64,000 nt of DNA from Escherichia phage Pu-Krd-SF1, in sequence record PQ249395; one strand, given 5' to 3'. Positions within the stretch are counted from its first letter, which is position 1. The number at the start of each line of letters is the position of its first letter. The notes under the pieces are model-generated. The model saw only the letters and a list, made by a program, of their open reading frames with translations. It was not told the origin of the DNA and searched no databases. Below are positions 17,901-18,680 of the stretch, in pieces. The position numbers and the translations under genes are program-made.

Positions 17901-18680
17901 ATGAATTATACTAAAGTATATAATAATTTAATTAAGAAAGGAAAACTCAGAAAATTAGATAAATCTAAATTAAATTTTTATACGGAAAAGCATCATATTA
18001 TTCCATCTTGTATTGGTGGTAATGATGATTCTGATAATCTAGTTTTATTAACAGCTAGAGAGCATTTTATAGCCCATTGGCTTTTAGCTAAAATTCATTA
18101 TAATTCGCCTGGATTAATTTATGCATAGTGGTCATTTTATAATTTTGGAGAAGATTCTTTAGGAAGAAATCTCAAATTAACTTCAAGAGGATATCAGTTA
18201 GTTAGAGAAAAATTTTCAAAAATACATTCTAATACAATGAAAGAAATGTGGAAGTCTAATGAATACAGAGAAAAACGTTCGATAACATTAAGTCTTCCTG
18301 AAATAAGGGCTAAAATTTCAGAATCCCAGTTAGAAGCACAAAACAAACCGGAAGTTAAAGAAAAAATATCTAAAGGGGTGAAAGCTGCTTTTAAACGACC
18401 GGGAGTTAAAGAAAAACACTCTGCTGCAGTCAAAAAATCTTTGAATAATTTTGAAACTAAAAAGAAACAATCAAATTCATCTAAAATTAGACAAAGAACT
18501 GGTAAACATTGGCAAGACTATGACTTACTTTATAAGTTATGGATTAAATTAAATAGACCTAAACGTGGGTCATTCGGAACTTATATAAGTAAATTAGGAT
18601 ATCCAAAATCTAATTATCATCGATTGATTGTACAATTTAATGAAGATTATGAAAGGTCTAATAATGAAAACTGTAGTTAA
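17901..18680 (+). pseudogene. HNH (mob-type) homing endonuclease interrupted by one in-frame amber codon
   Basis: 17901-18128 (HNH motif) and 18237-18680 (C-terminal half) share a frame; only stop between is TAG at 18126-18128. Confidence 0.6.

Follow-up and report, generated by a model that had tools for sequence, protein, structure and literature searches.

The question raised by this locus is whether a homing-endonuclease gene that is interrupted by one in-frame amber codon was inactivated only very recently or is expressed solely when that codon is suppressed. The locus lies within a 64-kb stretch of phage DNA, the whole of which was analyzed and is referred to here as the window. A preliminary description made from the letters alone had raised both readings, after noting that two neighboring open reading frames (ORFs), the first of which encodes an HNH core, are separated by a single TAG. 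The features of the gene are as follows, in window coordinates:

17901..18680, plus strand: mobD, a free-standing HNH homing-endonuclease gene of 260 codons (terminal stop counted) with an interruption at codon 76 (identified by 778/780 nt shared with T4T mobD, by synteny and by PHROG 655)

17901..18125, plus strand: the translatable N-terminal 75 codons, with an HNH (beta-beta-alpha-metal) core at residues 25-59 (nt 17973-18077)

18126..18128, plus strand: the amber codon TAG where the intact alleles have TGG (Trp76), owing to A rather than G at 18127 (alignments with T4T, RB3, F25 and CJY920)

18129..18677, plus strand: the 183 codons after the amber codon, a C-terminal region that is presumed to be DNA-binding and would be untranslated in a non-suppressing host

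Translation of 17901-18680 gave 260 codons with a sole internal stop, at codon 76, and a terminal TAA, and besides the TAG no stop or frameshift was found in the joined frame of the window's copy. The ORF listing places the two ORFs at 17901-18128 (75 aa) and 18237-18680 (147 aa); their starts are 336 nt, or 112 codons, apart and they are therefore in a common frame. Translation and listing together confirmed the coordinates, the shared frame and the TAG at 18126-18128 as the only intervening stop, all of which had been put forward in the preliminary description, and the peptide strings quoted there are present in the sequence. That such a frame is open apart from a single stop is far beyond chance: at the 27.7% GC of the gene about 24 in-frame stops would be expected per 259 codons, compared with the one observed, and none of 200,000 shuffles of the gene's composition had one in-frame stop or fewer.

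The split HNH homing-endonuclease gene proved to be the ortholog of T4 mobD, and both of its pieces match PHROG 655 'homing endonuclease' (E=2e-37 for the N-terminal piece and E=5e-12 for the C-terminal piece). The T4T gene, which is intact and annotated as an H-N-H homing endonuclease, has the same length and is 99.74% identical to the window copy over the 780 nt, with two differences: a synonymous TAT/TAC at Tyr67 and the G to A at 18127 that converts TGG into TAG. Apart from codon 76, the joined protein is identical to T4T MobD. When the RB3 and F25 alleles were aligned, A versus G at 18127 was the sole difference in the entire gene. The gene order mobD.1 - mobD - nrdC.11 is common to the annotations of Pu-Krd-SF5 and T4T, and the 74-nt spacer upstream of mobD is 100% identical in T4, RB3, F25 and CJY920. 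T4 mobD thus has the length, the neighbors and the upstream spacer of the window copy, but it has TGG at codon 76 where the window copy has TAG, which leaves 75 of 259 residues translatable. In a published review (PMC2988022), MobD is described as a free-standing HNH protein whose activity was not determined and whose target is unknown, with its insertion site between mobD.1 and nrdC.11. Over the 2.5-kb segment around mobD the window matches Escherichia phages Pu-Krd-SF5, SF6 and SF7 at 100% and phage T4 at 94.5%, and on its sequence we assign it to the T4-like coliphages, within the Pu-Krd-SF sibling group. GenBank presents the amber-bearing sequence (in Pu-Krd-SF5) as two CDSs, one a 'homing endonuclease' and the other a 'hypothetical protein'.

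The joined product had also been reported to match two intact paralogs elsewhere in the window:

39452-40306, plus strand: an intact mob-like HNH endonuclease gene of PHROG 655, between 46.1 and gene 46, with a GTG start that overlaps the stop of the upstream ORF by 4 nt

57616-58452, plus strand: an intact mob-like HNH endonuclease gene that adjoins gene 56 (dCTPase), roughly at the T4 site of the GIY-YIG gene segF

This match stood in part. Both genes are intact and belong to PHROG 655, and their layout is that of MobD, with the HNH core at the N terminus and the pattern ...LW(I)..N(R)PK...GYP at the C-terminal end, but their identity to MobD is only 30% (39452-40306) and 25% (57616-58452), they occupy other genome sites and they are not in T4. 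We would therefore regard the intact ortholog, T4 mobD with its 778 of 780 shared nucleotides, as the decisive comparison rather than these distant relatives. The gene at 39452-40306, without a counterpart in T4, recurs in G2133, G28 and BEU50 at 98.9-99.7% identity; the best T4 match to its protein by tblastn was mobD itself, at 30%. An assignment of the two paralogs as T4 mobC and mobB was ruled out, as tblastn shows both to be missing from T4.

The distribution of the stop was determined with a 61-nt probe centered on the TAG, together with a TGG version of the same probe, run against phage records, 45 of which carry this mobD. Exact matches to the TAG probe were obtained in five of the 45 records, all of them Pu-Krd-SF3 to SF7, and TGG is present at codon 76 in 40 (26 exact probe matches and 14 T4-type records that differ only by a synonymous change). 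The stop at codon 76 is not conserved among orthologs and is confined to one sibling group. By tblastn with T4T MobD, the encoded protein is 100% identical in 35 records and 99.6% identical in four T4 records; SF5, SF6 and SF7 are also at 99.6%, with the stop as their lone mismatch. Trp76 is found in the VR26-type MobD as well, a protein that is 80% identical, and lies there within a strongly conserved stretch. The TAG allele was absent among the three IMG/VR loci found with T4 MobD, which were one 80%-identical VR26-type locus and two distant relatives. Matches in two pieces were returned for SF3, SF4 and WL-3, and these suggest frameshifts. The match in WL-3 (MT968995.1, phage vB_EcoM_WL-3, 52153-52931) spans 779 nt, which suggests a 1-nt deletion, and this is the sole disrupted-looking T4-type mobD outside the Pu-Krd group among the records examined.

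We conclude, with a probability of roughly 0.9, that mobD in the window is a very young pseudogene: a selfish gene, itself dispensable, that was hit recently and in this lineage alone by a nonsense mutation. The base at 18127 underwent a G-to-A transition, which turned the Trp76 codon TGG into TAG, once, in the ancestor of five near-identical isolates, and in a non-suppressing host translation would then end after 75 residues. The very recent inactivation suggested in the preliminary description is borne out by the one-base difference from the intact RB3 and F25 alleles, by the retention of TGG in 40 of the 45 mobD records and by the lack of any other lesion in the window's copy. The amber codon aside, this copy is perfectly preserved, which fits a very recent event and would fit a maintained conditional gene too. 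The mutation may have arisen either in nature or during laboratory propagation, the sequence being compatible with both.

As to what the stop leaves, the HNH core lies complete on its upstream side and the C-terminal region on its downstream side. An HH...N...H motif is discernible in the N-terminal sequence, and the Pfam HNH model PF01844 matches the N-terminal piece at E=3.9e-4 and 21.0 bits, just below its cut-off of 21.4. In a sequence search of solved structures, the HNH domain of the group II intron maturase 6me0 was aligned with residues 25-59 (E=0.004); only this short core was matched in that search, with no structural match for the C-terminal region, and no Pfam domain was found in the C-terminal part. 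Residues 77-259 have 100% protein identity to T4 MobD. The 75-residue product would keep the HNH catalytic core (residues ~25-59) and lose the C-terminal region of ~184 residues, the part to which site-specific DNA binding is presumed to fall in enzymes of this class. Site-specific nicking and homing would be lost in the truncated protein, and we expect truncated MobD to be non-functional.

Such a loss would probably be neutral, mobD being in all likelihood both dispensable and selfish, and the phage would be expected to tolerate it because the gene is dispensable and absent from most relatives. Just 45 of the 722 records that have the same flanking genes carry mobD. The surroundings of the gene comprise the following features:

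17284..17826, plus strand: mobD.1, the upstream neighbor by the Pu-Krd-SF5 and T4T annotations; over 541 aligned nt its identity to T4 is 88.7%, versus 99.7% for mobD

17833..17904, plus strand: a leader mini-ORF of 23 codons, MFISSGTDMCYKCKAKLNETKNQ followed by its stop, with a good ribosome-binding site, GAGG, 5 nt before the ATG and a stop that overlaps the mobD start

17852..18659, plus strand: the mobD cassette, 808 bp that replace 962 bp with two other ORFs in RB32 and GADU22

18664..19674, plus strand: nrdC.11 (nucleotidyltransferase), the downstream neighbor, assigned from annotations, 94.3% identical to T4

19676..19695, plus strand: an intrinsic-terminator-like hairpin followed by a T run, which closes the mobD.1-mobD-nrdC.11 unit

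The homology to RB32 and GADU22, the mobD-less relatives that were examined directly, ends at 17851 and restarts at 18660, and one of the two other ORFs that these phages have at the site is annotated 'replaces mobD' in RB32. Most relatives, as judged from the mobD-less phages sampled, have two ORFs there that are unrelated to mobD. From ~17803 to 18716 the window, T4, RB3, F25 and CJY920 are 99.7-100% identical, whereas across those phages the flanks are 88.7-98.6% (mobD.1) and 94.3-95.5% (nrdC.11) identical; the GC content of mobD is 27.7% versus 34.2% for the window. A mobile cassette that had spread recently among phages otherwise diverged would be expected to show just this combination of a near-identical mobD, diverged flanks and low GC, and the segment ~17803-18716 has the appearance of a tract over which the cassette recently swept or was co-converted. 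A premature stop relative to intact orthologs in combination with a patchy distribution (45/722) is the pattern of a degenerating homing-endonuclease pseudogene.

The leader mini-ORF was compared with RB32ORF097c, which begins MFISSGSG..., and it is the 5' remnant of the gene displaced by mobD. It is absent from the VR26-type cassette, and since it has not been kept there we treat it as a remnant. For MobD, no translation initiation region of its own is listed in the review (PMC2988022). Translation of MobD may be coupled to the leader, because the leader stop overlaps the mobD start as ATGA. Within 17000-19000 no T4 late promoter (TATAAATA) was found, the single match to a MotA-box-like motif was at 18915, inside nrdC.11, and sigma-70-like matches were no commoner than in shuffled sequence. 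The start of nrdC.11 overlaps the final 17 nt of mobD and has its own AAGG ~8 nt upstream, by virtue of which nrdC.11 is probably still translated; a polar effect of the amber codon on it is possible. With regard to public records, mobD.1 to mobD.4 are mislabeled 'molybdopterin-guanine dinucleotide biosynthesis protein MobD' in OP870144, NC_054939, NC_054916 and others because of gene-name confusion, and nrdC.11 is called 'thioredoxin' or 'nucleotidyltransferase' depending on the record.

The other reading in the preliminary description, that the gene is expressed only with amber suppression, did not hold up. It would require full-length MobD to be made only through readthrough of the TAG, whether by a suppressor tRNA of host or phage origin or in a programmed manner, and we consider this very improbable. 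In its favor, the remaining frame is intact and identical to functional-looking alleles, and the tRNA genes that T4-type phages bring with them can become suppressors by mutation. The tRNA genes in the window are grouped at one location:

2896..4284, plus strand: a cluster of eight tRNA genes, none with a CUA (amber-reading) anticodon (ARAGORN, Rfam)

However, the anticodons of the eight, as called by ARAGORN, are TAA, TCC, TGG, TGA, TGT, CAT, GTA and TCT, and no amber suppressor tRNA (CTA anticodon) was found in the 64-kb window scanned. The isolates were propagated on E. coli B, which is a non-suppressing strain without an amber suppressor, and the stop is restricted to one sibling group and missing from 40 of the 45 mobD alleles. 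In the alignment, the surroundings of the stop are the same as in the TGG-bearing alleles, so nothing has evolved there to promote readthrough. Within the same cluster, the tRNA-Tyr (GTA) that ARAGORN placed at 3406-3492 is barely above the Rfam tRNA threshold (30.2 vs 29 bits), and it could represent either a tRNA that has diverged or a stable RNA resembling a tRNA. No tRNA-Gln was called in the cluster at 2896-4284, and the tRNA set of the window differs from that of T4.

A functional two-piece enzyme is also conceivable, albeit with very little probability: re-initiation at ATG 18237 would supply a C-terminal fragment, and this would combine with the HNH peptide of 75 residues to form an active nuclease. 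The position of the stop, between a complete HNH core and the C-terminal region, would suit such an arrangement, and split nrdA, split gene 43 and a split topoisomerase still function in related phages (PMC2988022). Against it, there is no in-frame start (ATG, GTG or TTG) between 18129 and 18236, the first being ATG 18237, and no Shine-Dalgarno match was found before that ATG (preceded by AAAATACATTCTAATACA) or before ATG 18246. Since ATG 18237 lacks a Shine-Dalgarno sequence, there is no support for re-initiation efficient enough to yield a functioning enzyme in two pieces. Residues 76-112 would, moreover, go missing, the arrangement is limited to one sibling group, there is no compensating change in the sequence, and the mobD genes of SF3 and SF4 have additional frameshifting indels, as described below.

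The sibling isolates bear on whether the TAG is real. The Pu-Krd-SF isolates were obtained in Russia from the faeces of piglets and propagated on E. coli B, and the TAG records come from one laboratory. In the mobD region the five TAG records are near-clonal, with zero substitutions among them, and the five assemblies are different genomes, with record lengths of 167,696 to 169,328. SF3 and SF4 have an in-frame 24-nt deletion in nrdC.11 (window equivalent 18801-18824). The endonuclease gene at 57616 is absent from SF7, whereas it is present in SF5 at 100% and in SF3 at 99.3%, and so endonuclease content varies among isolates that are near-identical in the compared mobD region. Beyond the TAG, mobD has one frameshifting homopolymer indel in SF3 and two in SF4: an additional A in the A-run after 18431 in both isolates, and the loss of a T in the T-run at 17975 in SF4. 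These changes could be further pseudogene decay or read errors. We interpret the five TAG records as one mutational event inherited by the sibling group, and they count as a single independent observation, since the laboratory and the type of sample were the same for all five.

An error of sequencing or assembly, which would make 18127 a G in reality and leave mobD uninterrupted, is given hardly any weight. A shared pipeline artefact is conceivable in that all TAG records are from one submitter group, and the homopolymer-length differences of SF3 and SF4 are typical of read errors, but the TAG recurs in five non-identical assemblies (which differ in length, in the nrdC.11 deletion and in the 57616 gene) and its site, GCATAGTGG, is not a homopolymer, with substitution errors being rare in consensus assemblies. 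Because the TAG was sequenced several times, and in a non-homopolymer context, a random sequencing error is unlikely. There is likewise only a very slim chance that the HNH-only peptide, alone or with a weakly re-initiated C-terminal fragment, retains a biological role; if it did, examples of such a role would be relaxed-specificity nicking or interference with the intact MobD of co-infecting phages, and the amber allele would be maintained, not merely tolerated.

A very young mobD pseudogene is one more selfish homing-endonuclease gene at the very onset of decay, its sole lesion being a single nonsense change. A nonsense allele of T4 mobD is already known biology and no new coding mechanism; recoding, suppression or a new mechanism is not indicated by it, and its significance is small. 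In the literature on the Pu-Krd-SF phages, just a passing mention of Pu-Krd-SF1 was found, in a genome comparison. The value of the allele is as a clean, datable case of the gain-and-decay cycle of homing endonucleases in T4-like phages, and it could be used as a natural mobD knockout for functional study of MobD.

The proposed loss of mobD would fit the degeneration cycle that has been described for homing endonucleases, for which T4 itself has an example in its defunct I-TevIII (PMC2988022). The two cases are alike in that an HNH endonuclease is inactivated in one T-even phage and intact in a close relative, which for I-TevIII, encoded in the nrdB intron, is RB3 (PMC2988022). They differ in that I-TevIII is intron-encoded, whereas mobD is a free-standing gene. 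The I-TevIII allele of T4 is a deletion or truncation, while the lesion in mobD is a single nonsense substitution.
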